Below, piece by piece: positions 2,041 through 30,811 of a stretch of 64,000 nt of DNA. Made by a program: the position numbers and the translations under genes. The DNA comes from Leptolyngbya sp. NIES-3755 (GTDB lineage Bacteria; Cyanobacteriota; Cyanobacteriia; Leptolyngbyales; Leptolyngbyaceae), in contig AP017308.1 of NCBI GenBank assembly GCA_001548435.1, forward strand, positions 503,030-567,029, written 5' to 3'. The notes under the pieces were generated by a model. The model did not search any database and had not been told where the DNA came from. It was given only the letters and a program-made list of their open reading frames with translations. The first letter of the stretch is position 1, and each line of letters starts with the position of its first letter.

Positions 2041-2130
2041 GTTTAACATTCGAGGCTCAGGATGAAGGAATAGCACCTTTCATCTTGAGCGACTTACAAC
2101 AATCGCGATCGTGCCACGTTCTGATCATGC

Positions 2131-3040: not shown

Positions 3041-3116
3041 GATTGGTTGACAAATTTAAGAAAGACTCAGATTTTGCGGGGTTCCAAGCAGGCTTAATCG
3101 GCTCTGTGTTGTGATT

Positions 3117-3145
3117 TGCAAATAATTATCTGATATTTATTTGCA
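3117..3145. promoter_or_regulatory. AT-rich perfect inverted repeat TGCAAATAA-n11-TTATTTGCA (candidate operator, Fur-box-like content)
   Basis: Perfect 9-bp arms read directly in the sequence, in the crp-dps intergenic region. The core AATAATTATCTGATATTTATT resembles AT-rich Fur/iron boxes. Confidence 0.25.
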
Positions 3146-3504
3146 TTTAGTCGATGTTATGTAGATTACACCTCGGCTCAATCACGATCGCTATTGCACA
3201 ATAAAGTCAGGATTACAACTTCAGAGATTCTTCTTATGATTTAATGACAGAAGCCCTACAGAGTGATTGCGTAAGTTAAGCAACATCACGAACCTTGCAT
3301 GAATTTGCTGTCCAACTGATTTTACGTACTTGAATAAAAGCTGGTTTAACTGAAATCAGTACTGATAAAACCTTGCATTTTTTAAGTTTAAACCTTGTTG
3401 AATCAGCGATCGCGCCTCGAATAAACCTGTTACACTCAGGCGTAGCTCAATCTCTACAAATAGAGCATTGATCGCGAACCCACCGATTCTCTAGGAAGAA
3501 CACT

Positions 3505-4035
3505 ATGTCTCAAACACTCGTCAGACCCTTTGGGCAAGTTGGCAATAATCCAGTCCTGTTGGATCGTTCTACAACCGAACCCGTTTGCGAAGGTTTAAAC
3601 ATTGCTCTAGCAAGTTTTCAAGCTTTGTATCTGCAATACCAGAAGCATCATTTCGTGGTGGAAGGCGCAGAATTCTACTCGTTGCATCAGTTCTTTGAAG
3701 AGGGGTATGATGCAACCCAAGGTCATGTGCATGACTTAGGAGAACGATTGAATGGTTTGGGTGGTGTCCCGGCTGCCAGCTTCTCGAAACTTGCAGAACT
3801 TTGCTGTTTCACACCCGAAGCGGATGGAGAATTTAACTGTCGCCAAATGGTCGAAAATGATTTAGTAGCAGAACAAGCGATTATTTTGTTGCTTCGTCGA
3901 TTGGCATCCCAAGCAGAAAGTTTGGGCGATCGTGCAACTCGTTACCTGCTTGAGCAAATTCTCCTCAAGACTGAAGAACGCGCTTACCATTTGGATCATT
4001 TCTTAGCACATGATACTTTGGTGATTCTGAATTAG
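3505..4035 (+). CDS. dps: Dps-family DNA-protecting ferritin-like protein
   Basis: 176 aa; the ferritin-like fold signature runs [18 protein letters not shown]...HVHDLGERL, with ferroxidase-site His/Glu/Asp spaced as in Dps. Confidence 0.8.
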
Positions 4036-4043
4036 CGATCGCG

Positions 4044-4076
4044 CTGTGGATCAGGTTCAAACAATCTGATCCACAG
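4044..4076. terminator. Bidirectional hairpin (CTGTGGATCAG-n11-CTGATCCACAG) between convergent dps and the downstream minus-strand gene
   Basis: Perfect 11-bp inverted repeat read from the sequence, sitting between two convergent stop codons. Confidence 0.5.
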
Positions 4077-4123
4077 CATGAAGTTACCTTTTAATCAAAG
4101 CATCGACTGGATCAGTAGGAAAA

Positions 4124-5167
4124 CTACATAGATGCCATTTCTTGTTGCACTCTGGTTTTTACCGCTTTGAATTGAGAAGCCATTTGTTCCTTCTCTTCGG
4201 TACTGCAATTTTTGTCGATCGATGCAAACATGGTGCTTTCTTCCTGCCGAATGTGGTCGCCGACTTGCTCCATCAAATCCTTGATTTTGGAACGGAACAG
4301 ATCAGCCGATGAAGATGGATCGATCGATTTAATCTCTTCCAACATCGGTCGCCATTCTGCTTGTTCGTCGTAGAGTTCTTGAGTGTTTTCATCGCCGTAG
4401 AATGGGCGAATTTTGGCATAGACCACTTCTTCCTCAGCTTGAGCGTGAGCCAGCATATCCTTGTACAGTTGACCGAAGTATTCTTGTAGCTTCTGTGGAT
4501 CTTTCGTTGCACCGATTTCAGTAAAGATCGTGTTGACCTTGTTGTGATCCAATCGAATCAACGTTTGGATATTCATATCCTGCTTATTAGTGTTTTGAGT
4601 GATCACACTGCCCGCAACACCAGATAAAGCCGCGATCGCATCTTGCACTCGTGCCCAAAGACCTTGATCGGCATCCATTCCAGTCATCTCACGAACGCCC
4701 ACTTGTTCGAGCATTCCTTTGAGTTGTTCTTGATGTGCCCGACCTTCAAAATTCACTGTATTGAGCGGCGCGATCGCAATTTCGATATCGGCTCCCACCT
4801 TTTGTGCTGCTTTGTGAATGTTGATGCCGCTCATGGCTTGACCATGCTTCATCAGTTCATGGTGAATCAGCTTTTGATAGTACGTGAACTCATCCCGTGC
4901 CATCATTTGCTCAAAGTTTTCGACAAAAATCTTCGTTGCAGCACTCGGTTCAGGTTGAATGCCGTATTGCACCAGCACCGTTTCAATGATGCCTAAGTTC
5001 TTTTGATCATCTTCCAGCATGTTTTGTAAACGATCGCGCACATCATTATAGGGACAGGCTTCGATCAACTTCTGGTCATTGGAAATAATCAAACTTTGAA
5101 AGGCTTTTAGATCTGCTAACCGTTCTCCGATCATTAATCGCTTTGTATCGTCTAGCGTTGTAACCAT
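4124..5167 (-). CDS. Ferritin-like (DUF892/YciF-like) N-terminal domain plus C-terminal hemerythrin HHE cation-binding domain protein
   Basis: 347 aa. The C-terminal half has the H...HxxxE / H...E spacing of hemerythrin-like domains (LIRLDHNKV...MLAHAQAEEE...HIRQEE). The N-terminal half is an all-helical ferritin-like region. Confidence 0.5.
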   Translation of the reverse strand: MVTTLDDTKRLMIGERLADLKAFQSLIISNDQKLIEACPYNDVRDRLQNMLEDDQKNLGIIETVLVQYGIQPEPSAATKIFVENFEQMMARDEFTYYQKLIHHELMKHGQAMSGINIHKAAQKVGADIEIAIAPLNTVNFEGRAHQEQLKGMLEQVGVREMTGMDADQGLWARVQDAIAALSGVAGSVITQNTNKQDMNIQTLIRLDHNKVNTIFTEIGATKDPQKLQEYFGQLYKDMLAHAQAEEEVVYAKIRPFYGDENTQELYDEQAEWRPMLEEIKSIDPSSSADLFRSKIKDLMEQVGDHIRQEESTMFASIDKNCSTEEKEQMASQFKAVKTRVQQEMASM

Positions 5168-7565: not shown

Positions 7566-8399
7566 TTAAGCCGACCAAGCCTCGCGAAAATCCGCATAGA
7601 GTGTTAATCCACCATCAATGAACAGCGTTTGCCCCGTAATGTAAGCGGCATCTTCTGAAGCGAGAAAGGCAACAGCGGCAGCCATTTCCTCAGTAGTTCC
7701 CGCACGAGACATCGGGATATGACTTTCTACAACGGCTTTCTTTTCTGGATCTTCGACCCACTCTTCATTAATTGGAGTCACAGTTGCACCCGGCGCGATC
7801 GCATTGACCCGAATTCTACGACCTGCATATTCAAGCGCCAGTGTTTTTGTTAGATTTTCCATTCCGCCTTTGCTCACCGAATAGCTCAGATACATCGGTC
7901 GCGGAATGATTTCGTGAACACTTGAGATATTGATAATTGTTCCAGGCTGATTGTGTGAAACAAAGTGTTTTAGAGCTTCCCGCGCACAGAGAAATGCACC
8001 GCGTAAGTTAATTGAAAGAATTCGATCGAACTCTTCAGTCGGAATTTCATGTGAAGCACACTCGGTTTGTACCCCTGCATTGTTGACTAAGATATCTAAG
8101 CTACCGAATGTCTCGATCGTCGTTTTGAACATTCTCAGAATGTCGTCTTCTTTTGAGACATCTCCTTGAATTAGAACTGTTTTGATCCCTTCAGGAGCTT
8201 TTTGGAGTGCCATTTTTTGGGTCTCTTCGGCTTCTTCGAGGCTTTTGCGGTAATTGATCACAATATTGCAGCCTTCTTGAGCCAATCGAATTGCGATCGC
8301 TTGTCCGATCCCTGAACTGGCTCCGGTAATGAGCGCGGTCTTTCCAGCGAGTCCTTTCATCACAGTTCTCCTTTGGGTCTGAGCGAACAGCGTGATCAT
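7566..8399 (-). CDS. SDR-family oxidoreductase (glucose-1-dehydrogenase-like)
   Basis: Cofactor site TGASSGIGQAIA, NNAG motif, and the catalytic YSVSK (YxxxK) tetrad region. Confidence 0.85.
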   Translation of the reverse strand: MITLFAQTQRRTVMKGLAGKTALITGASSGIGQAIAIRLAQEGCNIVINYRKSLEEAEETQKMALQKAPEGIKTVLIQGDVSKEDDILRMFKTTIETFGSLDILVNNAGVQTECASHEIPTEEFDRILSINLRGAFLCAREALKHFVSHNQPGTIINISSVHEIIPRPMYLSYSVSKGGMENLTKTLALEYAGRRIRVNAIAPGATVTPINEEWVEDPEKKAVVESHIPMSRAGTTEEMAAAVAFLASEDAAYITGQTLFIDGGLTLYADFREAWSA

Positions 8400-8461
8400 A
8401 CACTGGTCACTAAAATAGAAAAACGATAAATCACTTCAACAGGCGAAAATCTGTCCGTAGA

Positions 8462-9142
8462 GTGAGTCAAATTTTGTTAACTGCGATCGAGAATGACACC
8501 ATGACGGAACAAGACAAGCCTCGAAGCGTACCTCAGTTACATACCTCTGAACTATTGCAGAATCTATTGCAGCAACATTCTGGGGAGACGATTCGCTTAG
8601 GAGAATTGATCCAAAGTTTGGGCAGTCGTGCATTTGGTCCGACATTATTGCTTTGTGCATTACCGGAAGCATTACCGTTACCGATCGCAGGTGTGTCTGC
8701 GATTATTGGCACTCCATTATTTATTTTTTCCGTACAGCTCCTACTTGGATATCCTTCTCCTCAACTTCCAAAGTGGCTCTCTAATAAAACGTTTAGGCGT
8801 AAAGACTTTGAGAAAGCTGTGAGACAGATTTTGCGCTATTTGCACCGATTCGAGAAAATCATTCGTCCTCGCTGGCAGTTTGCAACAACTCCGATCGTAG
8901 AACGTTGGTTAGGATTACTCTTTGTCGTGCTTGCAGTGGTGATTATGCTGCCGATCCCGTTTGGGAATTTCTTGCCTGCGATCGCGATTGTGACGATTAG
9001 TTTGGGATTGATCGAGGCGGATGGAGTGTTGGTAGTCGCTGGCTCGATCGCATCGGTGATCATTTTGGTGATTATGGCAGGTGCGATCGTGACACTCTTC
9101 TCTTGGGTGATGCAATGGCTTAATCAATTCTTGAGACGCTGA
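8462..9142 (+). CDS. ExoD-family exopolysaccharide-synthesis membrane protein
   Basis: Matches the ExoD family pattern (LALPEALPLP..G..AIIGTPL...), 226 aa, multiple TM segments. Confidence 0.65.
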   Translation: MSQILLTAIENDTMTEQDKPRSVPQLHTSELLQNLLQQHSGETIRLGELIQSLGSRAFGPTLLLCALPEALPLPIAGVSAIIGTPLFIFSVQLLLGYPSPQLPKWLSNKTFRRKDFEKAVRQILRYLHRFEKIIRPRWQFATTPIVERWLGLLFVVLAVVIMLPIPFGNFLPAIAIVTISLGLIEADGVLVVAGSIASVIILVIMAGAIVTLFSWVMQWLNQFLRR

Positions 9143-9159
9143 GCGAAATCTTTCTTCGG

Positions 9160-10683
9160 GTGGAAACTTTCTATGTTCTTGAAACGGTAAGGTCAGTCTG
9201 GAATCTCGTATCGATCGTGGTTATGGAATTACAAGAACTCTTCAATGGAATCGTTGTTCGAGGCTTGTCTGGAGAGTTATCTGAGTTTTTTTCGACCAAA
9301 CTATTTACATTTGGTGGAAAGCAATTCTCGATCGGCTCTGTGGTCGAGATTCTGATTCAAGTTGTGATTGTTCTGATTATTGCGAATCTAACGAAGCAAC
9401 TTCTGAAAGAGAGAGTGTTTCCAGGGTTCGGGCTGAATGTCGGAACTCGCGAGTCACTTTCTACGATCGTGAGCTATATCGTTACGGTTATTGGATTTTT
9501 CGTTGTTGTTGAAACGACTGGAATTAATCTGAGTTCTCTTACCGTATTTGCAGGTGCGATCGGGATTGGGTTTGGGATTGGTTTGCAGAACATCACGAGC
9601 AATTTTATTAGTGGCATCACATTGTTGTTTGAGCAGCCTGTGAAGGTCGGTGACTATATTGAAGTCGATCAAATGGCGGGAGTTGTTGAAGAAATTTCGG
9701 TTCGCAGTACAACGATTCGGACGATCAATGGGGTGCATGTGATTGTGCCTAATAGTCGAGTGCTTGAGAATAGTGTGGTGAACTGGAACTATCGTGATCC
9801 AGAATCTCGATTAGTGATCCCGGTTTCAGTCGTAGATGAGAGTGATTCTCTGACTGTGATGGAAGCATTGTTGGCGGCTGCACGTCAGGAACCGAGAGTG
9901 TTAACTTTGCCATCCCCAGAGGTTTATTTCAAGGGATTAGATGTTGAGAATTCCATGCTGAAGTTTGAACTATTAGTGTGGATTGATCACCCGATCGAGA
10001 TGGATTCGATTAAAAGTGCATTGTATTTTTTGATTGAAGCAGAGTTTCGCGATCGCGATCTCGACACCAAAGCGGCTCCGACTGATATTGTGCTGAACGA
10101 TTTACCTACAATTGTTCAACTCTTACAAAATAAAACTCATCAAAATGGTTCAGCAACTCCAGTCATGCAGCCTGAAAAGCCGATTAGTGGTTGGCTTCTG
10201 CGCGATTTGCTGAAGAAAGTAAGCTATTTTCAACATTGTTCTGATGTAGAGCTTCGACAGGTGATCGAGAAAGGCTATCGTAAGCGATTGGCAGCGGGTG
10301 AAGTGATTGCACGAGAAAATGATCCAGGAGATTCGTTTTATCTCATTTTGTCGGGTGCGGTTGAAGTCGTGGTGGAATCTATCGATCGACAAGTTGCGGT
10401 TCGACGTGCGGGTGAATTTATCGGAGAGATGTCGCTTTTGTTGGGAACGCCTCGGAGTGCCACTTTACGCACAGTTGAGGATACGATTCTGTTCGTCGTA
10501 GATCATGGAAATCTTCAAAGCTTGCTCAGTAGTCATCAGGGATTGGCGGATCAAATTGCTGAGGAACTATCGCATCGGCAGGAGACACTTAAAAGTATCG
10601 GTGTGACTGTGATGGAAGCGACGAAAGAAGAATCGCGGTTTGAATTGATTCGGAAACAGATTCGATCGATCTTTGATCTGTAA
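9160..10683 (+). CDS. MscS-family mechanosensitive channel with C-terminal cyclic-nucleotide-binding domain (bCNG-type channel); start may be the internal ATG at 9223
   Basis: TM helices, the MscS pore/beta domain (GIGFGIGLQNITSNFISGITLLFEQPVKVGDYIEV...VRSTTIRT), then a CAP-type cNMP domain (FYLILSGAVEV...GEMSLLLGTPRSATLRTVE). Confidence 0.8.
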   Translation: METFYVLETVRSVWNLVSIVVMELQELFNGIVVRGLSGELSEFFSTKLFTFGGKQFSIGSVVEILIQVVIVLIIANLTKQLLKERVFPGFGLNVGTRESLSTIVSYIVTVIGFFVVVETTGINLSSLTVFAGAIGIGFGIGLQNITSNFISGITLLFEQPVKVGDYIEVDQMAGVVEEISVRSTTIRTINGVHVIVPNSRVLENSVVNWNYRDPESRLVIPVSVVDESDSLTVMEALLAAARQEPRVLTLPSPEVYFKGLDVENSMLKFELLVWIDHPIEMDSIKSALYFLIEAEFRDRDLDTKAAPTDIVLNDLPTIVQLLQNKTHQNGSATPVMQPEKPISGWLLRDLLKKVSYFQHCSDVELRQVIEKGYRKRLAAGEVIARENDPGDSFYLILSGAVEVVVESIDRQVAVRRAGEFIGEMSLLLGTPRSATLRTVEDTILFVVDHGNLQSLLSSHQGLADQIAEELSHRQETLKSIGVTVMEATKEESRFELIRKQIRSIFDL

Positions 10684-10760
10684 ATTCCCCTCTTGAGATA
10701 GATACTCAGCACCTTCACATTGCGTTAGTCTCGGCTACGAACTGATCGCGGCGATCGTAC

Positions 10761-11210
10761 ATGTTACTGCTGCTTTTCCATCTTGATGAAGATACTTATG
10801 CGATCGATAGCACTCATGTGATTGAAGTGTTGCCGATCGTGATGCTGCGAAAAGTTTATCAAGTGCCTGCTCATGTTTCAGGCGTGTTTCGATATCGTAA
10901 TTGCATTGTGCCTGTGGTGGATCTTTGTAAGCTGATTCGGGGTGAAGCTTCTCGATCGAGGTTTAGTACTCGCATCATTATGGTTCGATATCAGACTAGA
11001 AATGGTGAAGATGCTTATGTAGGATTGTTAGCCGAACGAGTAACTGAAACACTTAATTTACCTGATCTCAAGCCCACAGAACAAAGCCATGATGGTTCTT
11101 ATCTCGGTGAAGTCTTAATGCACGATAGTGAAATGATTCAGCGATTTCGGTGGGAATCTTTGATCACTGATGTTCAGAATGCAGCACTAATTTCGGGAGG
11201 GGCTTGTTGA
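10761..11210 (+). CDS. CheW-like coupling protein (WspB-equivalent)
   Basis: 149 aa single CheW-like domain (YAIDSTHVIEVLPI...VPAHVSGVFRYRNCIVPVVDL). Confidence 0.8.
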   Translation: MLLLLFHLDEDTYAIDSTHVIEVLPIVMLRKVYQVPAHVSGVFRYRNCIVPVVDLCKLIRGEASRSRFSTRIIMVRYQTRNGEDAYVGLLAERVTETLNLPDLKPTEQSHDGSYLGEVLMHDSEMIQRFRWESLITDVQNAALISGGAC

Positions 11211-11214
11211 GTGA

Positions 11215-12363
11215 ATGGTGCAAACAACGATTGAAGCAATGTTGAAACAGAAGATTGGATTAGATGCAAATAGTATTGGATCAAACGCGATCGCTTATGT
11301 CATTGATCAGCGTCGATCGCGCTGCGGTTCTCCCAATCTCAATGACTATTACGATCGTTTGCAACATTCACCCGAAGAACTTAATGCCTTAATTGAAGCG
11401 GTTGTTGTTCCTGAAACTTGGTTTTTTCGCGATCGAGAACCTTTTGCCTATCTAAAGCAATGGATTCAGACTGAATGGAGGTCAACTACGAAATTGCGTG
11501 TTCTTTCTGCACCTTGTTCGACCGGAGAAGAACCGTATTCGATCGCGATCACATTGCTTGAATCAGGACTATCAACACAGCAGTTTGGAATTGATGCGAT
11601 CGACATTAGCCAAACTGTTTTAGAAAGAGCGAAAAAGGCAACGTATTCAAAGCGATCGTTTCGAGGAAATGCGTCTGCTAACTTGACGTACTTCGAGAAA
11701 ATTGGCGAGCAATATCAAGTACGATCGCACATTCGTAATACGGTTCAATTTGTTCGAGAAAATCTTGTAGAACCTCGGTTTATTCTCGATCGACACTATG
11801 ATGTGATTTTTTGTCGAAACTTGTTGATTTATCTCGATCAAGAATCGCGATCGCAAGTGATGAAAATTCTCGATCGAGCTTTAGCGACTCCTGGCGTATT
11901 GTTCTTAGGTGCAGTAGAAACATCACAAGTTCCATTCAATACTTATCAACCAGTTCATCACTCTGGTGCATTTGCTTATCGAAAAGTAGAGCGATCAGAA
12001 CCCGCACCGCTCAGAATCCCAATTATTCAATCGTTACCGCCACTAAAGTCATTTCCAAAGCTTCCGAAATTAGAGCAAGTAAAACAATGTTTGGCACAAG
12101 GGAAACTCACCGAAGCAGCACGACTTTGTGAAGCTTATCTAATGAACGATCGAACCGATACAAACGCTTACTTTCTTCTCAGCAAAATCTATCAGGAACT
12201 TAAACAACTTCCTCAAGCAGAACAAGCTTTACAAAAAGCGATTTATCTTAATCCTAAATTCTATGATGCCTTGATTGAATTAGCAGTGTTGAAAGAGCAA
12301 CAAGGAGATTTTACAACCGCAAAGATTCTCAGAGCAAGAGTTCAAAGACTTCTCAATTTATAA
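11215..12363 (+). CDS. CheR-type MCP methyltransferase with C-terminal TPR repeats (WspC-like)
   Basis: CheR N-terminal and SAM-binding motifs (ETWFFRD, LSAPCSTGEEPYSIAI), followed by C-terminal TPRs. Confidence 0.85.
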   Translation: MVQTTIEAMLKQKIGLDANSIGSNAIAYVIDQRRSRCGSPNLNDYYDRLQHSPEELNALIEAVVVPETWFFRDREPFAYLKQWIQTEWRSTTKLRVLSAPCSTGEEPYSIAITLLESGLSTQQFGIDAIDISQTVLERAKKATYSKRSFRGNASANLTYFEKIGEQYQVRSHIRNTVQFVRENLVEPRFILDRHYDVIFCRNLLIYLDQESRSQVMKILDRALATPGVLFLGAVETSQVPFNTYQPVHHSGAFAYRKVERSEPAPLRIPIIQSLPPLKSFPKLPKLEQVKQCLAQGKLTEAARLCEAYLMNDRTDTNAYFLLSKIYQELKQLPQAEQALQKAIYLNPKFYDALIELAVLKEQQGDFTTAKILRARVQRLLNL

Positions 12364-12373
12364 GGTTATTCCT

Positions 12374-13969
12374 ATGCTAAACAGAATCACAAATCGAATT
12401 TTACTCGGTTATTCTATTCCGCTAATCTTTCTGATTATCCTGAGCGCGATCGTCTATCGATCAACAACCCGCACGTTTCAACTCCAAGCCCAAGCCCAAC
12501 AAGCTGAGCGAAATATCCGACAGACTAACGAACTTGTTGAAGGCATCAATCGGATGATTGGCGCGGGTCGGGGTTACTATATCTTTCCAGGGCAGCAGGA
12601 CTTTATCAAAACTTACAGTGCGGGACTGCGACAAGCAAACGAGAAGGCTCAGCAGTTACAATCGACCAATAATCCGATTGTTCGCAATGCAACAGGTGAA
12701 CTTTCGCAGTTAGTTGAACAGTATGATGATGTGTTTCAAAGTGCGTTTCGATCGATTAACCAGCGTAACTTGGCGCAAGCCAGAGCAGAACTCGCAAAGC
12801 CTAGAATTGTCGATGTGTTGGAACGACGCGATCGGGTGGTGAGTGAGCTTCAGAACGAACTCAATCAGATCAATCAATCGGTTGCTGAATCTCAAGGATT
12901 TTTGCTGAGATTGATTGTGATTGGAACGACGCTGACTGTGATTTCAACGATCATCGTTGGACTGTTGAATACTTTGCCTCTGAAGCGTCAACTGCCTAAA
13001 GTGGTGAATGCAGCGGAAGCGATCGCAGATGGCAATCTAACTCATTCGCTGGGTGAAACGAAAGATAAAACTGAGGTGGGTCAATTGCTGGCTGCATTTC
13101 AGAACATGATCAAAAGCTTGAATGGTTTGATTTCTCAGGCTCAGCGATCGGGCATTCAAATCAGTACTTCAACCACACAGATCGCGGCGGCTGGCAAACA
13201 ATTAGAAGCAACAGTTAACGAGCAATTTGCCTCAATGAATGAAGTGAATGCGACAGCACGACAGATTGCAATGACAGCAGGGAACTTAGCACGATCGATG
13301 GATGAGGTGGTGAAAACAGCCCAAGAAACAACTCATGCAGCGACAGATAGTCAGACGAACTTAGATAAGATTCAGTCTGCGATGCAAAGACTTGGATATG
13401 CGACGAATTCGATCTCATCTAAGTTGAAAGTGATGGATGAGAAAGCGAACAATATCAATACTGTTGTCACTACCATTACGAAGGTGGCGGATCAAACGAA
13501 TTTACTATCTCTGAATGCTGCGATCGAGGCAGAAAAAGCGGGAGAATATGGTGCTGGATTCGCTGTGGTTGCCCGTGAGATTCGACGTTTAGCCGATCAA
13601 GCCGCAGTTGCGACTCTGGAAATCGAACAGATGGTAAAAGAAATGCAATCCTCGGTTTCAACAGGTGTAATTGAAGTTGATAAATTTCGTGGGGAAGTGA
13701 AGCAATATGTGGATGAAGTTGGCAATGTGAGTCAGCAGATTGAAAGCTTTATCGGTGATGTGCAAGGACTGACACCCAGATTTGTTACCGTCAGTCAAAG
13801 CATGGATGAGCAATATCGAGGAGCCGAGCAGATTAGTACTGCGATCGCTCAATTGCGAGATGCGTCTCAACAAACTGTACAGTCGATTCAGGAAACGAAC
13901 TATGCACTGACTCAATTAGACGATGCGACACGGGGCTTGCAGCGTGAAATTTCACAATTCAAGGTGTAA
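12374..13969 (+). CDS. Methyl-accepting chemotaxis protein with CHASE3-like periplasmic sensor, HAMP and MA domains (WspA-equivalent)
   Basis: Two TM segments flank a region of about 150 aa with a GRGYYIF...Y motif like the CHASE3 domain of the histidine kinase at 53571. HAMP and the highly conserved MA signalling core (LLSLNAAIEAEKAGEYGAGFAVVAREIRRLADQ) follow. Confidence 0.85.
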   Translation: MLNRITNRILLGYSIPLIFLIILSAIVYRSTTRTFQLQAQAQQAERNIRQTNELVEGINRMIGAGRGYYIFPGQQDFIKTYSAGLRQANEKAQQLQSTNNPIVRNATGELSQLVEQYDDVFQSAFRSINQRNLAQARAELAKPRIVDVLERRDRVVSELQNELNQINQSVAESQGFLLRLIVIGTTLTVISTIIVGLLNTLPLKRQLPKVVNAAEAIADGNLTHSLGETKDKTEVGQLLAAFQNMIKSLNGLISQAQRSGIQISTSTTQIAAAGKQLEATVNEQFASMNEVNATARQIAMTAGNLARSMDEVVKTAQETTHAATDSQTNLDKIQSAMQRLGYATNSISSKLKVMDEKANNINTVVTTITKVADQTNLLSLNAAIEAEKAGEYGAGFAVVAREIRRLADQAAVATLEIEQMVKEMQSSVSTGVIEVDKFRGEVKQYVDEVGNVSQQIESFIGDVQGLTPRFVTVSQSMDEQYRGAEQISTAIAQLRDASQQTVQSIQETNYALTQLDDATRGLQREISQFKV

Positions 13970-13972
13970 GTC

Positions 13973-14635
13973 ATGGTCACGATCGAAGAAATCAGCGATT
14001 GTTGGAATCAGATCGGCGCAGAAGGCGATCGCAGTTGTGATCAGCTTAAACAGATGACGCATTGCCATAATTGCCCAGTGTTTGCGAAATCTGGAAGCTT
14101 GTTATTAGAGCGAGAAGTTCCGAGTGAGTATATTCAGGAATGGACGAACACGATCGCAGAACGTGGATCAGCCCTGAGTTTGCGATCGACTGAGGAAATG
14201 CTTTCACTGATTCTGTTCCGGTTGGGAAATGAACAGTTCGCAATTTCAGTACGATCGCTACAAGAAGTGATTCGTCTAGCTCGAATTCATACTCTGCCCC
14301 ATCGCAGCAATTCTCTATTTTTAGGTCTGACTAGCATTCGAGGCGAAATCTTACTTTGTGCATCTCTCAGAGAGTTTCTGAACTTAGAGCCTGCTGCATC
14401 ATCAGGACGCGAACAAATGCTAGTCGTGGGAACAACTCAGCGTAAATGGGTGTTTCCAGTCGATGAAGTGTATGGAATTCACCGCTATCCCTTACGAGAG
14501 ATTCAAGATCCGCCTGTTGTTCTGCTCAAAACAAATTCAGCTTATACACAAGGGATTGTTAACTGGAACGATCAGAAAGTGAACTATCTGAATGCAGAAT
14601 TGCTCATTGACACGCTTGATCGGAGATTGCTATGA
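13973..14635 (+). CDS. CheW-like coupling protein with N-terminal Cys-cluster extension (WspD-equivalent)
   Basis: CheW domain (LILFRLGNEQFAISVRSLQEV...). The N-terminal 40 aa carry C-x12-C-x8-C-H-N-C. Confidence 0.75.
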   Translation: MVTIEEISDCWNQIGAEGDRSCDQLKQMTHCHNCPVFAKSGSLLLEREVPSEYIQEWTNTIAERGSALSLRSTEEMLSLILFRLGNEQFAISVRSLQEVIRLARIHTLPHRSNSLFLGLTSIRGEILLCASLREFLNLEPAASSGREQMLVVGTTQRKWVFPVDEVYGIHRYPLREIQDPPVVLLKTNSAYTQGIVNWNDQKVNYLNAELLIDTLDRRLL

Positions 14636-17430
14636 GCTATTCAATGCGCGATCTGTTTCAGCAAGAAACGAGTACTCAAGTCGATCGCTTAAAACAATGT
14701 TTAACTCGTTTACAGCAACAGCCTGATCAAAAAGATGAGATTGATACGGCTTTGCATTCGATTCGTGCGATCGTGGGCGCGGCTCATTTGATCGAATTTA
14801 CGGCTGCGATTCATTTAGCAGAGGTGATGCAATCTTGTTTGAATGCCGCTTATCAGGATCGGCGACCTTTAACTCCTGAGAGACTAGAAGCATTGCTGCA
14901 TGGCTGTACTTTGCTTTCTCAGATGAGTCAGCTTGAGGAAACGGAACAATGGTTGTCGAATCATGGCGAGGATCTAGAGAAAACAGAAAAGTCGATCGAG
15001 GAAACATCGTCTGCTGAAGTGAATGGATCATTGAACAATGGTGTGCCCTCACCCCCAGCCCCTCTCCCAGAAGGAGAGGGGGGCAAGAATTCTAGTTCCC
15101 TCTCCCCTAGGGAGAGGGTTAGGGTGAGGGCTACAACCGATTCAAACGAAGCGAATACACCTCAATTGCTGATAGAAGAGCCACCTGAGTCTTCTCCTCA
15201 AAGCCTTGTTCAAGATGATCCGGAATTGATGGAATTGTTTCGGCAAGAAGTCGAAGCACAAACGATTACATTGAATCGGGGATTAGTCGCGATCGAAGCT
15301 CATCCCAATTCCCGTCAAGAGCTTGAATCCCTCATGAGAGCCGCACACTCAATCAAAGGAGCCGCTCGAATTGTTGGGCTAGATGTTGCAGTCGAATTAG
15401 CGCATCAGATGGAGGATTGCTTTGTAGCGGCTCAGAAACAATCTTTTAAGATCAATGCAGCCATGATCGATGCGTTGTTTCGCGGTGTCGATCTAATTCA
15501 ATCGATTAGCCAAACCCAGAATGTTCAACAATGGCTTTCTCAACATCGTTCTGACCTTGAATCTGTTCATCAATTGCTGTCTTCTGATGCTGCTCCCGTT
15601 TCACAGCCCGTTCCACAACCTGTTCCTACTCCTGCACCGATTTCTCCAAAGATCGAACCTCCAGAGCCTGAAGTGAACACACAGAGCAATACACGTGAAC
15701 GCGATGCCTCCGGCACACGGGAACGTGACCGAGTGGTTCGCATTAGTGCCGATAACTTAAATCGCATTGTTGGACTGGCTGGTGAATCAATGGTTGAAGC
15801 GTATTGGCTCCAGCCCTTTGCAGAATCATTGATGGAACTCCGATCGAAACAAATCGCGCTCTCAAAAGCTCTAGAAGATCTGCAACAATCGCATCCGATC
15901 GAGCAGTTAGAGACACTGCGGCAACAAGAGCGAGAATGTCGGGATTCATTAAGCGATCGTATTGCTGAACTCGGTGAATACATTCGACGGACTGATAATT
16001 TGTCCGATCGCTTATATCGAGAGGTGATTCAATCTCAGATGCGACCGTTTGCGGATGGAGTGCAGGGTTTCCCACGAATGGTACGAGACTTGTCGCGACA
16101 GATTGGAAAGCAAGTCAACTTCTCGATCGTTGGAGAGAATACGCCTGTCGATCGAGATATTTTGACCAAGCTCGAAGCTCCGATTACTCATATTTTGCGA
16201 AATGCGATCGATCACGGAATCGAGTCGCCTGAAGACCGGATTAAAGCTGGAAAATCCGCAGAGGGAACGATTCAACTCGAAGCTTCTCATCGGGGTGGAA
16301 TGTTGATGATTAGCATTTCTGATGATGGAAAAGGGATAGATGTCGATCGGGTTCGCAAACAGGTGATTCGTCGCCATCTTGCACCGCCAGAATTTGCGAG
16401 ACGAATGAGCCACGGTGAATTGATGGAATTTCTCTTTTTGCCTGGTTTTTCGCTCTCGAAACAAGTGACAGAGCTATCCGGGCGCGGTGTTGGATTGGAT
16501 ATTGTGAAAGCGATGGCGCAGGAGGTCGGAGGTTCTGTTCGTGCAACCTCTTCACTCGGTTCGGGTACAAGTTTTCACTTGCAGTTACCGCTTACCTTGT
16601 CAGTCGTGCGAACATTGCTGGTCGAGGTTTCGGGTGAACAATATGCGTTCCCTTTGTCGCGGATCGATCGAATTCTCAGTCTCGATCGAGCTTCGATTTC
16701 TGTGGTCGAAAATCAGCCTTACTTTACCTTTAATGATCAACATATTGGATTGATTTCGCTGAATCAAGTGTTTGATCTACAGCAATCTAGTTCACTGTCT
16801 GAATCGCTGTGTGTGATTGTTTTAAGTTATCAATCAGCGCAGTATGGATTAATTGTCGATCGAACATTGGGAGAGCGAGAATTAGTAGTACGCCCGCTCG
16901 ATCCACGTCTTGGAAAAGTTCAAGATATCGGTGCTGCATCATTGATGAGTGATGGTTCATTAGTTCTGATTGTCGATGTTTCGGATTTAGTTCGATCGAT
17001 TAATAAACTATTAGATGCTGGAAAGCTCACAGCACCACGCACCGTTGAGACTGAACAACCGAAAAAACGTATTCTTGTTGTCGATGATTCGATTACAGTA
17101 CGGGAAGTAGAGCGAAAATTATTAGAAAAACACGGATACAGTGTGGATGTCGCGATCGATGGAATGGAAGGTTGGAATGCGGTTCGCAATCAGTCTTATG
17201 ATTTAGTCATTAGTGATGTTGATATGCCTAGAATGAATGGAATCGAGTTAATTCAACAGATTAAGAGTCATGCTCGACTACGATCGACTCCGGTAATCGT
17301 TGTGTCTTATCGCGATCGAGAATCCGATCGATTGCAAGGATTAGATGCAGGAGCCAATTATTATTTAACAAAAAATAGTTTTCAAGATGATACTTTGATT
17401 CAAGCTGTCGTTGATTTGATTGGGCAGTAA
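14632..17430 (+). CDS. Hybrid CheA histidine kinase: degenerate Hpt, canonical Hpt (HSIKGAA), HATPase_c, CheW-like and C-terminal receiver (WspE-like)
   Basis: Two Hpt-like segments, H-box/N/G1/G2 kinase motifs, CheW-like domain, C-terminal REC (ILVVDDS...DLVISDVDMPRMNG). 4-bp overlap with the upstream gene. Confidence 0.9.
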   Translation: MSYSMRDLFQQETSTQVDRLKQCLTRLQQQPDQKDEIDTALHSIRAIVGAAHLIEFTAAIHLAEVMQSCLNAAYQDRRPLTPERLEALLHGCTLLSQMSQLEETEQWLSNHGEDLEKTEKSIEETSSAEVNGSLNNGVPSPPAPLPEGEGGKNSSSLSPRERVRVRATTDSNEANTPQLLIEEPPESSPQSLVQDDPELMELFRQEVEAQTITLNRGLVAIEAHPNSRQELESLMRAAHSIKGAARIVGLDVAVELAHQMEDCFVAAQKQSFKINAAMIDALFRGVDLIQSISQTQNVQQWLSQHRSDLESVHQLLSSDAAPVSQPVPQPVPTPAPISPKIEPPEPEVNTQSNTRERDASGTRERDRVVRISADNLNRIVGLAGESMVEAYWLQPFAESLMELRSKQIALSKALEDLQQSHPIEQLETLRQQERECRDSLSDRIAELGEYIRRTDNLSDRLYREVIQSQMRPFADGVQGFPRMVRDLSRQIGKQVNFSIVGENTPVDRDILTKLEAPITHILRNAIDHGIESPEDRIKAGKSAEGTIQLEASHRGGMLMISISDDGKGIDVDRVRKQVIRRHLAPPEFARRMSHGELMEFLFLPGFSLSKQVTELSGRGVGLDIVKAMAQEVGGSVRATSSLGSGTSFHLQLPLTLSVVRTLLVEVSGEQYAFPLSRIDRILSLDRASISVVENQPYFTFNDQHIGLISLNQVFDLQQSSSLSESLCVIVLSYQSAQYGLIVDRTLGERELVVRPLDPRLGKVQDIGAASLMSDGSLVLIVDVSDLVRSINKLLDAGKLTAPRTVETEQPKKRILVVDDSITVREVERKLLEKHGYSVDVAIDGMEGWNAVRNQSYDLVISDVDMPRMNGIELIQQIKSHARLRSTPVIVVSYRDRESDRLQGLDAGANYYLTKNSFQDDTLIQAVVDLIGQ
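15046..15130. repeat. GC-rich nested-palindrome mini-element inserted in-frame in the cheA inter-Hpt linker (small-dispersed-repeat/MITE-like)
   Basis: CCCTCACCC...CCCCTCTCCCAGAAGGAGAGGGG...CCCTCTCCCCTAGGGAGAGGG...GGGTGAGGG. Outer arms pair with each other and two inner hairpins form. It is translated as PSPPAPLPEGEGGKNSSSLSPRERVRVRA inside an otherwise ordinary CheA linker. Confidence 0.55.
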
Positions 17431-17433
17431 GCG

Positions 17434-18408
17434 ATGAGAATTGCGATCGTCAATGATTTAAGTTTGGCTGTAGAAGCCTTGCGCCGAACGGTCAAACAAG
17501 TTCCACAGCATGAGATTGCTTGGGTCGCTTACACAGGTCTGGAAGCGGTGAATAAATGCGCCCACGATCGCCCTGACTTGATTTTGATGGATTTATTTAT
17601 GCCTGAGATGGATGGCATTGAGGCGACAAAGCTGATTATGCAGCGATCGCCCTGTGCGATTTTGGTTGTTACGGCAGATGTGCAACATAGTTCTGCAAAA
17701 GTGTTTGAAGCAATGGGCTATGGTGCGTTAGATGCGGTGAATACGCCAACTTTAGGGAAAGAAAATGCTCACTTGTTGCTATCGAAAATTAAGACGATCG
17801 GGAAATTGATCGGAAAGTCCGAGTTTGTACCAATTCAGGCTAAAGTCCCTCTAGTGGTGATTGGTGCTTCGACTGGAGGACCAAAAGCGATCGTGACTAT
17901 TCTCTCTCAGTTACCACCCGATTTTGGAGCCGCGATCGTGATTGTTCAGCATGTCGATGTGCAGTTCGCCGCTGGCATGATTGATTGGTTAGATCAGCAA
18001 ACCGTATTAAAAGTGAAAAAAGCGCAGGTTGGCGATCGACCCACGAAAGGTATGGTTTTATTCGCATCGACTAATGATCATCTCTGTTTACAGGCGAATG
18101 GAACATTGACTTATACGCCGTATCCAAAGAGCTATCCTTACCGTCCCTCGGTGGATGTTTTCTTCAAAAGCGTGGCGCAGTATTGGAGCGATCGAGGAAC
18201 TGCGATTTTGCTCACAGGCATGGGACGCGATGGCGCAGAAGGCTTGAAAGCGTTGCGGCTTCAGGGATGGTATACGATCGCTCAAAGTGAATCGAGTTGT
18301 GTCGTTTATGGAATGCCTAAAGCTGCGATCGAGCTAAATGCTGCGGTCGATGTTCTGACTCCCGAAGCGATCGCAACCGCTTTATTGCACCGTTCACATC
18401 AACATTAG
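17434..18408 (+). CDS. cheB: CheB protein-glutamate methylesterase (REC plus methylesterase; WspF-like)
   Basis: REC ([14 protein letters not shown]) plus CheB_methylest ([14 protein letters not shown]...VQHVD) with catalytic Ser/His/Asp. Confidence 0.9.
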
Positions 18409-18410
18409 TC

Positions 18411-19901
18411 ATGAGCGATTCTATTACTGTTCTCCTCATCGACGATCAAGCCATCATCAGCGAAGCCATCCAGAAAATGTTGGCTCCAGAATCGGATATC
18501 AAATTCCACTATTGCAACAATCCACTAGAAGCGCTAAAGGTTGCGAAACAGTGCAATCCGACTGTGATTTTGCAAGATTTGGTGATGCCGCAGATGGATG
18601 GATTGTTACTGGTGCGATTTCTGCGATCGCAAGATGCTCCAACGGCTGATGTTCCTCTAATTGTGCTATCGAGCAAAGAAGAACCTGTGATTAAAGCTCA
18701 AGCGTTTGAACTAGGGGCAAATGATTATTTGGTGAAATTGCCCGATCGTGTTGAGTTGATTGCTCGAATTCGCTATCACTCCAGAGCTTATATCAACTTA
18801 CGCAAACGTCAGGAAGCAGAAGCGCAATTACGCGATGAGAACTTGCGGCAAGCTCAATACATTGAACAAGTGAATAAGCTAACGAAAGCAGCAGTTTCTG
18901 TTGAAGATAATAGTTTTAGACCAGAAGATTTAGAAGAAGTCAGCGATCGACCTGATGAACTGGGTCAACTCTCGCGGGTGTTTGTGCAAATGGTCGATAC
19001 GGTGAACACACGAGAACAAGAACTAAAGCGATTGAATGAGTCGTTTGCTCGATTCTTCCCTGGTGAATATCTGCAATTTCTGCGAAAAGAATCGGTGACA
19101 GAGGTGCAGTTAGGCGACTATGTAAGTAAAACGATGGCAGTGATGTTTAGTGATATTCGAGCATTTACAAGTATCTCTGAATCGATGACACCGCAGGAGA
19201 ATTTCGCTTTCGTGAATGCTTACTTGAAGCGTGTCAGTCCAGAAATTCGCAATCACTACGGCATTATTGTGAAATTCTTAGGTGACGGAATGATGGCAGT
19301 GTTTCCAGATGGTGCGGATGATGCGGTCGCGGCGGGCGTTGCGAAACAGCTTCGGGTGCAGGAATACAATGTCGATCGAATGGAACGAGGCTTTTTACCT
19401 GTGCAAGTTGGAATTGGAATTCATGTCGGGCACATGATGTTAGGCATGGTCGGGGAAACAAATCGAATTCAAGGTGATGCGTTCTCAGATAATGTGAATC
19501 TGACCTCTCGACTCGAAGGATTGACCAAATACTACGGCGTATCAATGCTGATTTCTGGTCAGACTTTGGAGTATTTGAGCAATCCGGATCAATATCAATT
19601 TCGGTTTCTCGATCGAGCGATCGTCAAAGGTCGAATTGAACCGATTACGGTGTACGAAGTGTTAGATGCTGAAACTGAAGAGAATCGTCAAATCAAACTA
19701 CAAACTCAATCGATTTACGATCAAGGAATTGAACACTATCGACAACAGGAATTTGATCAAGCGAGATCTCGTTTTAAGGAAGTTCTAGAGGCAAATCCAG
19801 ACGATAAAACGGCGCGGCTGTATGTCGATCGCGTCACTGAATTGCTCGATCGAGGAGTGCCCGAAGATTGGACGGATGCTTGGGCGTTTAGCGAGAAATA
19901 A
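18411..19901 (+). CDS. Response regulator fused to class III adenylyl/guanylyl cyclase (CHD) domain with C-terminal TPR-like tail
   Basis: REC (LLIDDQ...ILQDLVMPQMDG); coiled-coil linker; CHD (MFSDIRAFTSISE...KFLGDGMMAVF...GDAFSDNVNLTSRLE). Lys and Asp sit at the adenine-specifying positions. Confidence 0.8.
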   Translation: MSDSITVLLIDDQAIISEAIQKMLAPESDIKFHYCNNPLEALKVAKQCNPTVILQDLVMPQMDGLLLVRFLRSQDAPTADVPLIVLSSKEEPVIKAQAFELGANDYLVKLPDRVELIARIRYHSRAYINLRKRQEAEAQLRDENLRQAQYIEQVNKLTKAAVSVEDNSFRPEDLEEVSDRPDELGQLSRVFVQMVDTVNTREQELKRLNESFARFFPGEYLQFLRKESVTEVQLGDYVSKTMAVMFSDIRAFTSISESMTPQENFAFVNAYLKRVSPEIRNHYGIIVKFLGDGMMAVFPDGADDAVAAGVAKQLRVQEYNVDRMERGFLPVQVGIGIHVGHMMLGMVGETNRIQGDAFSDNVNLTSRLEGLTKYYGVSMLISGQTLEYLSNPDQYQFRFLDRAIVKGRIEPITVYEVLDAETEENRQIKLQTQSIYDQGIEHYRQQEFDQARSRFKEVLEANPDDKTARLYVDRVTELLDRGVPEDWTDAWAFSEK

Positions 19902-19969
19902 AGGAACGCGATCGTTTTCCAAATCTGCATTAAGATGGTCATGCCCTCGTTACCCGGTTCTCGATCGTT

Positions 19970-20920
19970 ATGTCTGACCTTCAAGCAACGTTCTCCAGCC
20001 TTCGACAAGCTCTTGATCAAATTGTGGTGGGTCAAAGCGCATTAGTACAGCAGCTTTTAGTGGCGTTGCTGTCTGGCGGGCATGTGATTTTAGAAGGTGT
20101 GCCGGGAACTGGAAAAACGCTTTTAGTCAAAGTAATGGCGCAATTAGTTCGATCGGAGTTTCGCCGCGTTCAACTGACTCCAGACATTCTGCCATCTGAT
20201 ATTTTAGGAACGAATATTTTTGACCTGAACACTCGCAACTTTATTTTGAAAAAAGGTCCCGTGTTCACGCAGATTCTACTTGCAGATGAAGTCAACCGAA
20301 CGCCACCCAAAACACAATCGGCACTGCTCGAAGCAATGGAAGAACAGCAAGTCACTCTAGACGGTGAGAGCTTGCCTTTGCCTGAGTTCTTCTGGGTAAT
20401 TGCAACTCAGAATTCATTGGAGTTTGAAGGAACTTATCCACTACCAGAGGCGCAACTCGATCGCTTTTTGTTCAAGCTAATGGCGAACTATCCCGATCCA
20501 GCAGCAGAAAAGAAAATGTTGCTCAATCATCAAGCAGGATTCCAAGCGAAACGGCTCAATCTCAGTAGACTTCAACCGATCGCATCTGTGGACGAAGTTT
20601 TGAAAGCGCGGCAACTGGTACGATCGCTAACTGTTGAAGAACCGATTCTCGATTATTTACTATCTGTGGTTCAGAAAACTCGCCAACATCCTGATCTAGT
20701 GTTAGGTGCTTCTCCTCGATCGGCAGTCGCCTGGTTGAATGTGAGTAAAGCTCAAGCTTGGTTATCCGGTCGGAACTATGTGACTCCGGATGATATTAAA
20801 GCGGTTGCTCCTCCACTGTTGCGCCATCGATTAATTCTACGTCCTGAAGCTCAGTTAGATGGAATTAATGTCGATTCGGTGATCAATGCCATTCTCAATC
20901 AAGTTGCTGTTCCTCGTTAG
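19970..20920 (+). CDS. MoxR-family AAA+ ATPase
   Basis: Walker A GVPGTGKT and the MoxR signature (ILLADEVNRTPPKTQSALLEAMEE). Confidence 0.85.
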   Translation: MSDLQATFSSLRQALDQIVVGQSALVQQLLVALLSGGHVILEGVPGTGKTLLVKVMAQLVRSEFRRVQLTPDILPSDILGTNIFDLNTRNFILKKGPVFTQILLADEVNRTPPKTQSALLEAMEEQQVTLDGESLPLPEFFWVIATQNSLEFEGTYPLPEAQLDRFLFKLMANYPDPAAEKKMLLNHQAGFQAKRLNLSRLQPIASVDEVLKARQLVRSLTVEEPILDYLLSVVQKTRQHPDLVLGASPRSAVAWLNVSKAQAWLSGRNYVTPDDIKAVAPPLLRHRLILRPEAQLDGINVDSVINAILNQVAVPR

Positions 20921-20923
20921 CTT

Positions 20924-22228
20924 ATGATTCCTTCACTCCGAACTTATGGATTATTGCTAGTCGGTGGCGCGATCGCTGCTGTTCTATTCTTGTTCAATCC
21001 GCAATTGTCGATCGTCGTTCTATTACTCTTCGATCTGATTGTTCTCGGATTAGCATTCTTCGATAGTTCACGAGTGAAACCGCATCGGGTGAAAGTCGAT
21101 CGACAAGTGGCATCCAGATTATCGATCGGGCGAGATAACTTAGTCAGCCTCAATGTTGAATCTGTAGCGCGATCGACAGAAATTCGCATCTATGATCAGT
21201 ATCCGATCGAGTTCTCTGTTTCATCAATGCCGCTAGCTCTAAAGCTTGGAGCAAATCTGAAACAGCAACTTTCCTATACGGTGAATCCTTCCTATCGAGG
21301 AGAGTATCACTGGAAAGACATTCAAGTGCGTCAATTAAGTCCGTGGCGACTCGCTTGGCACAGTTGGAAGATTCCACAAGAGCAAAAAGTTTCGGTTTAT
21401 CCAGATTTACTTGGACTACGATCGCTTTCAATCCGATTAACCTTAGAATCTTCTGGCTCAATTCGTCGCGCCCGTCGATTAGGCATTGGAACTGAATTCT
21501 CAGAGCTTCGAGAATATGGCATTGGAGATGATCCACGGTTTATTGATTGGAAAGCAACTGCACGACGTGGACAACCGTTAGTTCGAGTATTGGAACCAGA
21601 ACAAGAGCAGACTTTGATTATTTTGCTCGATCGCGGTCGGTTGATGACTTCTCAAGTTCAAGGATTAGCGCGATTTGATTGGGGACTGAATGCGACACTA
21701 GCACTGGCACTGGCGGGATTACATCGAGGCGATCGAGTTGGGGTTGGCGTATTCGATCGACAAGTTCAAACATGGATTCCTCCAGAACGCGGACAGGCAC
21801 ATTTGAATCATTTAATCGAGCGCTTAACTCCGATTCAACCAGAGATTCTAGAGCCAGATTATTTAGGTGCAGTTACAACCTTAGTCAATCAACAGGCTCG
21901 ACGGGCTTTAGTGGTTGTGATTACCGATATTGTTGATACTACAGCCTCATCCGAACTATTAGCAGCATTGGGACGATTAACACCGAGGTACTTACCATTC
22001 TGCGTTACCTTGCGAGATCCACAAGTTGATCAACAAGCACATACAGTAACCGAGGATTTGCCCTCGACTTACGAAAGAGCCGTAGCACTCGATTTGATTG
22101 CTCAGCGACAGATTGCATTTAGTACATTAAAACAACGAGGTGTATTAGTGTTGGATGCACCTGCGAATCAAATTACAGAAGAATTAGTCGATCGATATCT
22201 TCAACTCAAAGCCAGAAACCAACTTTAA
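20924..22228 (+). CDS. DUF58-family protein (vWA-like partner of MoxR) with N-terminal TM helices
   Basis: Immediately follows MoxR with a 3-bp gap; DUF58 motif region (EFSELREYGIGDDPRFIDWKATARRGQPLVRV). Confidence 0.75.
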   Translation: MIPSLRTYGLLLVGGAIAAVLFLFNPQLSIVVLLLFDLIVLGLAFFDSSRVKPHRVKVDRQVASRLSIGRDNLVSLNVESVARSTEIRIYDQYPIEFSVSSMPLALKLGANLKQQLSYTVNPSYRGEYHWKDIQVRQLSPWRLAWHSWKIPQEQKVSVYPDLLGLRSLSIRLTLESSGSIRRARRLGIGTEFSELREYGIGDDPRFIDWKATARRGQPLVRVLEPEQEQTLIILLDRGRLMTSQVQGLARFDWGLNATLALALAGLHRGDRVGVGVFDRQVQTWIPPERGQAHLNHLIERLTPIQPEILEPDYLGAVTTLVNQQARRALVVVITDIVDTTASSELLAALGRLTPRYLPFCVTLRDPQVDQQAHTVTEDLPSTYERAVALDLIAQRQIAFSTLKQRGVLVLDAPANQITEELVDRYLQLKARNQL

Positions 22229-22299
22229 TTGAGTCGATTGATCTCTTACAGAATTTTTTCAGCGATCGTTCCCTGCATTTCCTTGTCAAAATTGTATAA

Positions 22300-22536
22300 G
22301 TGTTTATATATTCGCGATCGTACACCATGACCGAAATCGTATTTCTCATCGAAGATGCACCCGAAGGCGGCTATACTGCTCGTGCCTTGAGCGAATCGAT
22401 CTTTACTGAAGCCGATGATATGGATCAATTACGCGAAGAAGTCCGCGATGCCGTCAGATGTCACTTTCCGGACGAACAAGATCGTCCTAAACTCATTCGT
22501 CTACATTTCGTGCGGGATGAGGTCATTGCCTCGTGA
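22300..22536 (+). CDS. HicB-like (UPF0150) antitoxin; start probably the internal ATG at 22327
   Basis: Small acidic protein with the HicB N-domain pattern (IVFLIEDAPEGGYTARALSE). GTGA overlap with the downstream HicA-like gene. Confidence 0.5.
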   Translation: MFIYSRSYTMTEIVFLIEDAPEGGYTARALSESIFTEADDMDQLREEVRDAVRCHFPDEQDRPKLIRLHFVRDEVIAS

Positions 22537-30809: not shown

Positions 30810-30811
30810 CC

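Follow-up and report, generated by a model that had tools for sequence, protein, structure and literature searches.

Chemosensory pathways with outputs other than motility are common and mostly uncharacterised, the Wsp pathway of Pseudomonas, which acts through cyclic di-GMP (c-di-GMP), being the main worked example. In Pseudomonas aeruginosa, cyclic AMP (cAMP) is controlled by the Pil-Chp system, of the type IV pilus class, through CyaB, a separate membrane cyclase. The CyaC-type cyclases of cyanobacteria, which join a histidine kinase (HK), a receiver domain (REC) and a class III cyclase domain (CHD), are activated by phosphotransfer to the receiver. A CheR methyltransferase carrying TPR repeats is a hallmark of alternative-cellular-function (ACF) pathways (PMC3447774), and Munoz-Martinez et al. 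(2012; PMC3447774) list REC-mononucleotidyl-cyclase outputs for such CheR-TPR clusters. The bCNG channel family was defined by Caldwell et al. (2010) and Malcolm et al. (2012), and a 2026 review (PMC13591265) gives its physiological role, its ligand source and the role of the nucleotide as unknown. The present analysis concerns an eight-gene module in a 64,000-nt stretch of the genome of Leptolyngbya sp. NIES-3755 (hereafter the window, in whose positions all coordinates are given), in which a bCNG channel gene precedes a Wsp-like cluster that ends in a predicted adenylate cyclase. A cassette of this kind has been annotated in Phormidesmis priestleyi BC1401, where a cyclic-nucleotide-binding gene lies upstream and the WspR position is taken by a class 3 adenylate cyclase, and the same system was noted in L. 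boryana and Geitlerinema; its authors, whose working assumption was a c-di-GMP Wsp pathway, looked for the c-di-GMP output elsewhere (Chrismas et al., 2016; PMC4971617). The module is a real, uncharacterised variant of the Wsp/ACF pathways. We consider it probable, with some reserve, that its eight genes form a Wsp-like, non-motility (ACF-type) pathway with a cAMP-making output, and that the preceding bCNG channel is the most likely reader of that cAMP.

The gene cluster and its terminal regulator

Eight open reading frames (ORFs) on the forward strand occupy positions 9160-19901. A sequence-only reading of this DNA had proposed a channel, che and REC-cyclase cluster there; the ORF list places the genes as proposed, and every domain call of that reading was matched by Pfam, the source of the domain calls given here.

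9160-10683, + strand: MscS-type channel with a cyclic nucleotide-binding (cNMP) domain, bCNG family (MS_channel_1st/2nd/3rd; cNMP_binding 74.7 bits, residues 375-459)
10761-11210, + strand: CheW, at the WspB position (Pfam CheW 71.3 bits; position kept across loci)
11215-12363, + strand: CheR with TPR, WspC-like (CheR 148 bits; TPR_17/19/8/2 at residues 293-370)
12374-13969, + strand: transmembrane methyl-accepting chemotaxis protein, MCP (MCPsignal 111 bits; HAMP; CHASE3 27.1 bits, cut-off 28)
13973-14635, + strand: second CheW, at the WspD position (Pfam CheW 88.3 bits)
14632-17430, + strand: hybrid CheA, WspE-like (Hpt, HATPase_c, CheW and C-terminal Response_reg; NCBIfam CheA matches)
17434-18408, + strand: CheB methylesterase with REC, WspF-like (CheB_methylest 198 bits; PRK12555 443 bits, NCBIfam cut-off 342)
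18411-19901, + strand: terminal regulator, REC-linker-CHD-TPR (Pfam REC and Guanylate_cyc, PF00211)

Spacers among the che genes range from -4 to +10 bp, the cyclase gene starts 2 bp after cheB, and 77 bp (10684-10760) lie between the channel gene and cheW. This last spacer measures about 310 bp (2079-2387) in a 97%-identical sister strain (L001), which suggests a small insertion there. In NCBIfam, no Wsp-specific or bCNG-specific model was reached by these proteins. In the MCP, two transmembrane segments (hydrophobic stretches at residues 9-28 and 176-198, read in the translation) enclose a CHASE3-like domain that spans about 145 aa in the periplasm, and are followed by a HAMP domain and the signalling domain. 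Its CHASE3 match falls just below the cut-off, and orthologous MCPs do score as CHASE3. The window holds a second CHASE3-type sensor, a CHASE3-GAF-HisKA-HATPase histidine kinase at 53571-55508 (CHASE3 120 bits).

The terminal regulator matches an annotated protein of Leptolyngbya sp. NIES-3755 at 100% identity, by which the source of the window is identified. Its best match in the PDB by phmmer is WspR itself (3bre, E 7.9e-48, 166.8 bits; 3i5a, E 2.8e-45), over about residues 3-145, which cover the receiver and reach into the stalk helix, at approximately 60% identity, and its D56 is aligned to the phospho-acceptor D70 of WspR. The regulator thus joins a receiver of the WspR type to an exchanged output domain and is not a generic response regulator; with Pfam matches for all the genes, the Wsp-type gene content claimed for the cluster is borne out. 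In an alignment of 13 orthologues reaching from Leptolyngbya to Nostocales, the receiver residues D11 and D12 (acidic pocket), D56, S87 and K109 are invariant, as are D248, D292, K288, D356, N363 and R367 of the cyclase domain. To the earlier description of the regulator must be added, as a correction, a helical HAMP-like linker (a sub-threshold HAMP match of 22.8 bits) and a TPR tail at the C-terminus. An AlphaFold2 (AF2) model built on the 13-sequence alignment shows with confidence the receiver, two long helices (113-165 and 183-212) and the TPR hairpins at 423-481. In a 617-aa variant of the regulator (L015, L132; P0043-P0058), found within the clade of the window (type A, defined below), a PAS_4 domain of about 120 aa stands between linker and cyclase domain and would bring a second input.

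That the regulator carries a cyclase domain in place of the GGDEF domain of WspR, as the sequence-only reading had it, is confirmed by the Guanylate_cyc match, and the identity of the catalytic residues allows the claim to be sharpened. All six class III catalytic residues are intact, namely the two metal-binding Asp, the transition-state Asn and Arg, and the Lys/Asp pair. The closest solved cyclase domain is that of Synechocystis Cya2 (2w01, E 1.3e-22). Cya2 is a guanylate cyclase, and the best PDB match to this domain therefore suggested that the regulator might be one as well. This was rejected from the specificity positions, set by residue-by-residue alignment to the solved cyclases Cya2, CyaB and bPAC: K288 is aligned to a position that holds Glu in Cya2 and Lys in the engineered adenylate-cyclase form of Cya2, while D356 is aligned to a position that holds Gly in Cya2 and Thr in CyaB and bPAC (class IIIb). 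A Lys/Asp pair marks ATP-specific class III cyclases. Sequence thus supports a class III cyclase with an ATP-specifying K288/D356 pair as the predicted output domain.

The channel combines an MscS core (TM3 and beta-domain) with a C-terminal cNMP domain (PF21088, PF00924, PF21082, PF00027), an architecture shared by hundreds of cyanobacterial homologues. Its phosphate-binding cassette, GEMSLLLGTPRSA, read in the translation, retains both Glu and Arg-Ser-Ala, which CAP also has; we take the motif Gly-Glu ... Arg-Ser/Thr-Ala to define an intact phosphate-binding cassette. The channel gene stands as first read, and its start, given as the GTG at 9160, does not: because most homologues are 482-498 aa long, translation probably begins at the ATG at 9223. 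An unannotated gene for a protein of 316-336 aa with no Pfam match begins 14 bp after the bCNG gene of Moorena bouillonii and of Westiellopsis prolifica (L165 11491-12501, L166 11500-12450) and may encode a conserved channel partner.

Distribution of the module and its linkage to cNMP-binding genes

For comparison, 172 loci (labelled L001-L172) were retrieved from a one-genome-per-species scan, a metagenome scan with a cyclase-only alignment and individual homologue look-ups, and were analysed with tblastn, jackhmmer and Pfam. The full-length REC-CHD-TPR proteins fall into three clades: type A, the clade of the window, at 73% identity or more; type B, from Nostocales and Oscillatoriales, at 62-70% identity to the window protein and 68-84% to the second copy in a sister strain; and type C, at about 71% identity. 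Of the loci that reach far enough upstream, almost all have the cyclase gene immediately after the series CheW-CheR-MCP-CheW-CheA-CheB, the exceptions being L006/L096 and L111. The sister strain Leptolyngbya AN10/AN03gr2 has, beside its type-A module, a second complete paralogous module of eight genes (L167 10001-20957), in the order bCNG-CheW-CheR-MCP (TarH/4HB-type)-CheW-CheA-CheB-REC-CHD, whose channel is 51% and whose cyclase is 66.6% identical to those of the window; NIES-3755 probably has a second copy outside the window too. As a type-B module thus coexists with a type-A module in the sister strain, a treatment of all cyanobacterial matches at about 67% identity as orthologues was rejected. 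In Phormidesmis priestleyi ULC007, the che cluster is broken right after cheR by type I-C cas genes (L171 13474-18695; Cas5d, Csd1, Cas7, Cas3), with the SulP-cNMP, bCNG, CheW and CheR genes still in place.

Among 80 loci found through the WspR-like receiver, the fused output was CHD in 40, SpoIIE/PP2C in 36 and GGDEF in 2, with spot checks by Pfam. The WspR-like receivers that close Wsp-like clusters are thus a family whose outputs are interchangeable, and this speaks for the fused domain as the output. Clusters with a WspR-type receiver fused to SpoIIE/PP2C (L034-L080), found in planctomycetes, deltaproteobacteria and others, are about as common in this sample as the cyclase version.

Linkage of the channel to the module is complete within type A: the 12 type-A loci whose upstream sequence is long enough (L001, L002/L085, L015, L132, L086, L087, L090, L091, L092, L170-L172) all have a bCNG gene as their immediate upstream neighbour on the same strand, at distances of about 10-310 bp, and this adjacency is kept down to approximately 65% identity in the channel and 74% in the cyclase. 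The co-inheritance of channel and cyclase with the che cluster, on which the sequence-only reading had staked its proposal, thus holds throughout type A, while most type-B clusters have no cNMP neighbour. A second type of transporter recurs beside the channel. A divergent SulP-STAS-cNMP gene adjoins it in three type-A loci (L170-L172), a partial SulP match lies at the same place in L002, and the type-C loci have a divergent SulP transporter and no channel, with STAS and cNMP domains seen in one of the two species; within the window, no SulP gene was found.

Other arrangements bring a bCNG gene and a cyclase gene together as well. In Iningainema, the channel gene lies between cheA and cheB of a distant paralogous cluster (L022), and in a Moorena metagenome-assembled genome it lies downstream on the opposite strand (L008). 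Paralogous cyclases with a dCache-HAMP-HK-REC-CHD-TPR layout, 57-62% identical in their CHD-TPR part, adjoin bCNG genes in L110, L116, L125 and L166; in L126, the gene beside such a cyclase gave an MscS-core match only, its cNMP domain not being detected. Outside cyanobacteria, REC-CHD genes adjoin genes for TPR-cNMP, ABC-transporter-cNMP, Ser/Thr-kinase-cNMP or small cNMP proteins. Gene neighbourhoods thus show cNMP-binding neighbours gained independently in further cyclase clades and in other phyla.

A model of the pathway and its alternatives

Gene content and order, a WspR-type receiver, an intact ATP-specific catalytic set and linkage to cNMP-binding transporters allow the construction of a model, which beyond domain identity draws by analogy on WspR and on the CyaC-type cyclases. 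In this model, the MCP would use its CHASE3-like domain to sense a cue in the periplasm or the envelope and, with the two CheW proteins, would control the hybrid kinase CheA-REC. CheA would then phosphorylate D56 in the WspR-type receiver of the terminal regulator, and the signal would run through the stalk helix and the HAMP-like linker to a dimeric class III cyclase domain, presumably raising the conversion of ATP to cAMP. Methylation of the receptor by CheR-TPR and its demethylation by CheB would cause the cAMP output to adapt. The cAMP may in turn alter ion flux by binding the bCNG channel encoded next door at its C-terminal domain, and in relatives may also bind the divergently encoded SulP-STAS-cNMP anion transporter. 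A more far-reaching version, to which we give somewhat less than even credence, is that of a conserved module in which an adapting chemoreceptor array sets cAMP through the REC-cyclase, with the cAMP acting locally on both the bCNG channel and the SulP-STAS-cNMP transporter, such that the output would be ion or anion flux. If so, the direct output of the pathway would be membrane potential, turgor or the uptake of bicarbonate or sulfate, and not motility, c-di-GMP or transcription, and the bCNG channels would have their first physiological ligand source and role. The part of the model that makes the channel a reader of the signal, already suggested in the sequence-only reading, gains comparative support from the adjacency throughout a clade, from a paralogous module with its own channel and from independent juxtapositions elsewhere; the gating itself we infer.

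Several observations weigh against the model. The cAMP gating of bCNG channels is itself poorly established (PMC13591265), and no functional study of the module in any cyanobacterium was found in the literature, mentions of adenylate cyclase in Nostoc punctiforme being left aside. The cyclase domain is of low confidence in the AF2 model (pLDDT <50). A promoter and terminator scan of 8300-22500 gave counts at or under the shuffled expectation, with no signal above chance from which co-transcription of the channel gene could be read, and does not inform the operon boundaries. The adjacency in type A is one inherited event and not 12 independent ones. Type-B clusters are mostly without a cNMP gene within reach, so that linkage to the channel is clade-restricted; the cyclase and channel genes of Moorena bouillonii lie about 1.3 Mb apart; and of five distant bCNG genes sampled, three have no cyclase gene close by.

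The observations on linkage are also what favours the strongest alternative, in which the che and cyclase pathway is real and the channel is merely a syntenic neighbour, inherited in one Leptolyngbya/Phormidesmis lineage. The cAMP would then have other readers, such as a SyCrp-type transcription factor or further cNMP proteins encoded at other loci. The type-B clusters, the unlinked genes of Moorena bouillonii, the distant bCNG genes and a promoter and terminator scan that does not settle the co-transcription of the channel are all consistent with this reading. However, adjacency has persisted through considerable divergence of both proteins, the paralogous module retains a channel of its own, the channel recurs in independent arrangements (inserted between cheA and cheB, on the opposite strand downstream, and beside the HK-REC-CHD paralogues), and SulP-STAS-cNMP, as a further transporter that binds cNMP, is found repeatedly at this position. 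In addition, a cNMP ORF lies, in the genome set, within 10 kb in 11 of 41 CHD loci and in 0 of 39 loci in which the WspR-like receiver has another output (Fisher p = 4.6e-4), an enrichment over CHD-less controls that is confounded by taxonomy, the control loci being mostly from planctomycetes and deltaproteobacteria; as a yardstick, 14 of the 6630 genes of Arthrospira are cNMP genes (PMC2853384). This alternative is judged unlikely, although it is the one to be taken most seriously.

A second alternative holds that this is an ordinary Wsp system that uses c-di-GMP through a REC-GGDEF WspR encoded elsewhere in the genome, the REC-CHD protein being a side branch or a phosphate sink. WspR-like REC-GGDEF proteins do occur elsewhere in the genome of P. 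priestleyi (Chrismas et al., PMC4971617), and in Pseudanabaena (L067) a REC-GGDEF protein with a WspR-like receiver does follow such a cluster. In NIES-3755, however, it is the gene at the WspR position, 2 bp after cheB, that has the WspR-type receiver; REC-CHD is kept at this position across cyanobacteria; no GGDEF match was found within the 64-kb window; and the interchangeable outputs among the 80 loci argue that the fused domain is the output. A c-di-GMP pathway of this kind is therefore considered improbable. Least probable of all is a cyclase domain whose product is cGMP, as the kinship with Cya2 might suggest, or some other nucleotide, or which is a catalytically dead scaffold, given the Lys and Asp at the specificity positions, where Cya2 has Glu and Gly, and the two metal-binding Asp and the Asn/Arg pair invariant in the 13 orthologues.

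Neighbouring features and relation to known systems

The immediate neighbours of the cluster are ExoD, SDR, MoxR and DUF58 genes (Pfam), and flagellar or pilus genes are not among them. Operon membership was considered for ExoD, 17-80 bp upstream, and for MoxR/DUF58, 68 bp downstream, and was rejected for both, since these neighbours are kept only in the 97%-identical sister strain. A Crp-family regulator upstream had also been counted as part of the module, and here the sequence-only reading does not hold. The gene (2384-3040) has a Crp helix-turn-helix, its cNMP_binding match reaches only 15.2 bits against a cut-off of 27.5, and its best NCBIfam match, PtrA, reaches 78.5 bits against a cut-off of 300, the PtrA/NtcA-like matches being weak. 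With a sub-threshold cNMP domain and a context of isiA, IsrR, dps and hemerythrin genes, it was rejected as a member of the module; it is not a convincing cAMP receptor and belongs to an isiA/IsrR/dps stress island. This iron and oxidative-stress island spans 1012-5167:

1012-2040: isiA-like CP43 homologue
1405-1582, - strand: IsrR antisense RNA inside isiA (Rfam 118.7 bits)
2384-3040: Crp/Fnr-family regulator
3505-4035: Dps ferritin
4124-5167, - strand: hemerythrin-domain protein

Farther along the window, at 30738-30887, two tRNA genes abut without a spacer, the first of which may be a degenerate duplicate:

30738-30811: tRNA-like gene (Rfam tRNA 56 bits; anticodon not callable by ARAGORN, short anticodon loop)
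30812-30887: tRNA-Phe(GAA)

The unit had been presented in the sequence-only reading as one never described, which is not the case. Papers of 2012 and 2016 had already presented its gene arrangement, and its novelty is limited accordingly: Chrismas et al. (2016; PMC4971617) had described this cassette, with the cyclic-nucleotide-binding gene at its upstream end, in an order identical to that of NIES-3755. Both papers are limited to annotation, and the one of 2016 proposes no link from cAMP to the channel. Comparison across genomes now makes the link from cyclase to channel a testable hypothesis. A cAMP-writing version with a fused cyclase would extend the Wsp paradigm to a second messenger, cAMP. 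The conserved pairing names a specific cyclase, kinase and receptor, which renders the bCNG question directly testable, and Leptolyngbya is genetically tractable. The recurring SulP-STAS-cNMP partner hints further at cAMP control of anion transport in cyanobacteria.

Set against the systems already described, the module stands closest to Pseudomonas Wsp (WspA-F with WspR, ACF class), with which it shares the same set of seven proteins, a terminal enzyme-linked regulator directly after cheB, a CheR fused to TPR, a hybrid CheA with a C-terminal receiver and two CheW genes. It differs from Wsp in its output, a predicted class III adenylate cyclase with a TPR tail in place of GGDEF, in the order CheW-CheR-MCP where Wsp has MCP-CheW-CheR, in its CHASE3-like sensor and in the cNMP-binding channel gene before the cluster. 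The module would thus work like Wsp, yet strictly speaking it is no Wsp system, because it has neither a GGDEF output nor a GGDEF match in the window. Like Pil-Chp, it is predicted to be a chemotaxis-like pathway that sets cAMP levels; unlike Pil-Chp, its cyclase is fused to the pathway's own receiver, and there are no pilus genes nearby. With the CyaC-type cyclases it shares a receiver placed directly before a class III cyclase domain, whereas its kinase is a separate CheA under a methylated receptor array, so that the pathway would be an adaptive one. Compared with the bCNG channels of Caldwell et al. (2010) and Malcolm et al. (2012), the channel gene of NIES-3755 differs in that it appears embedded in a defined, putatively cAMP-producing pathway.

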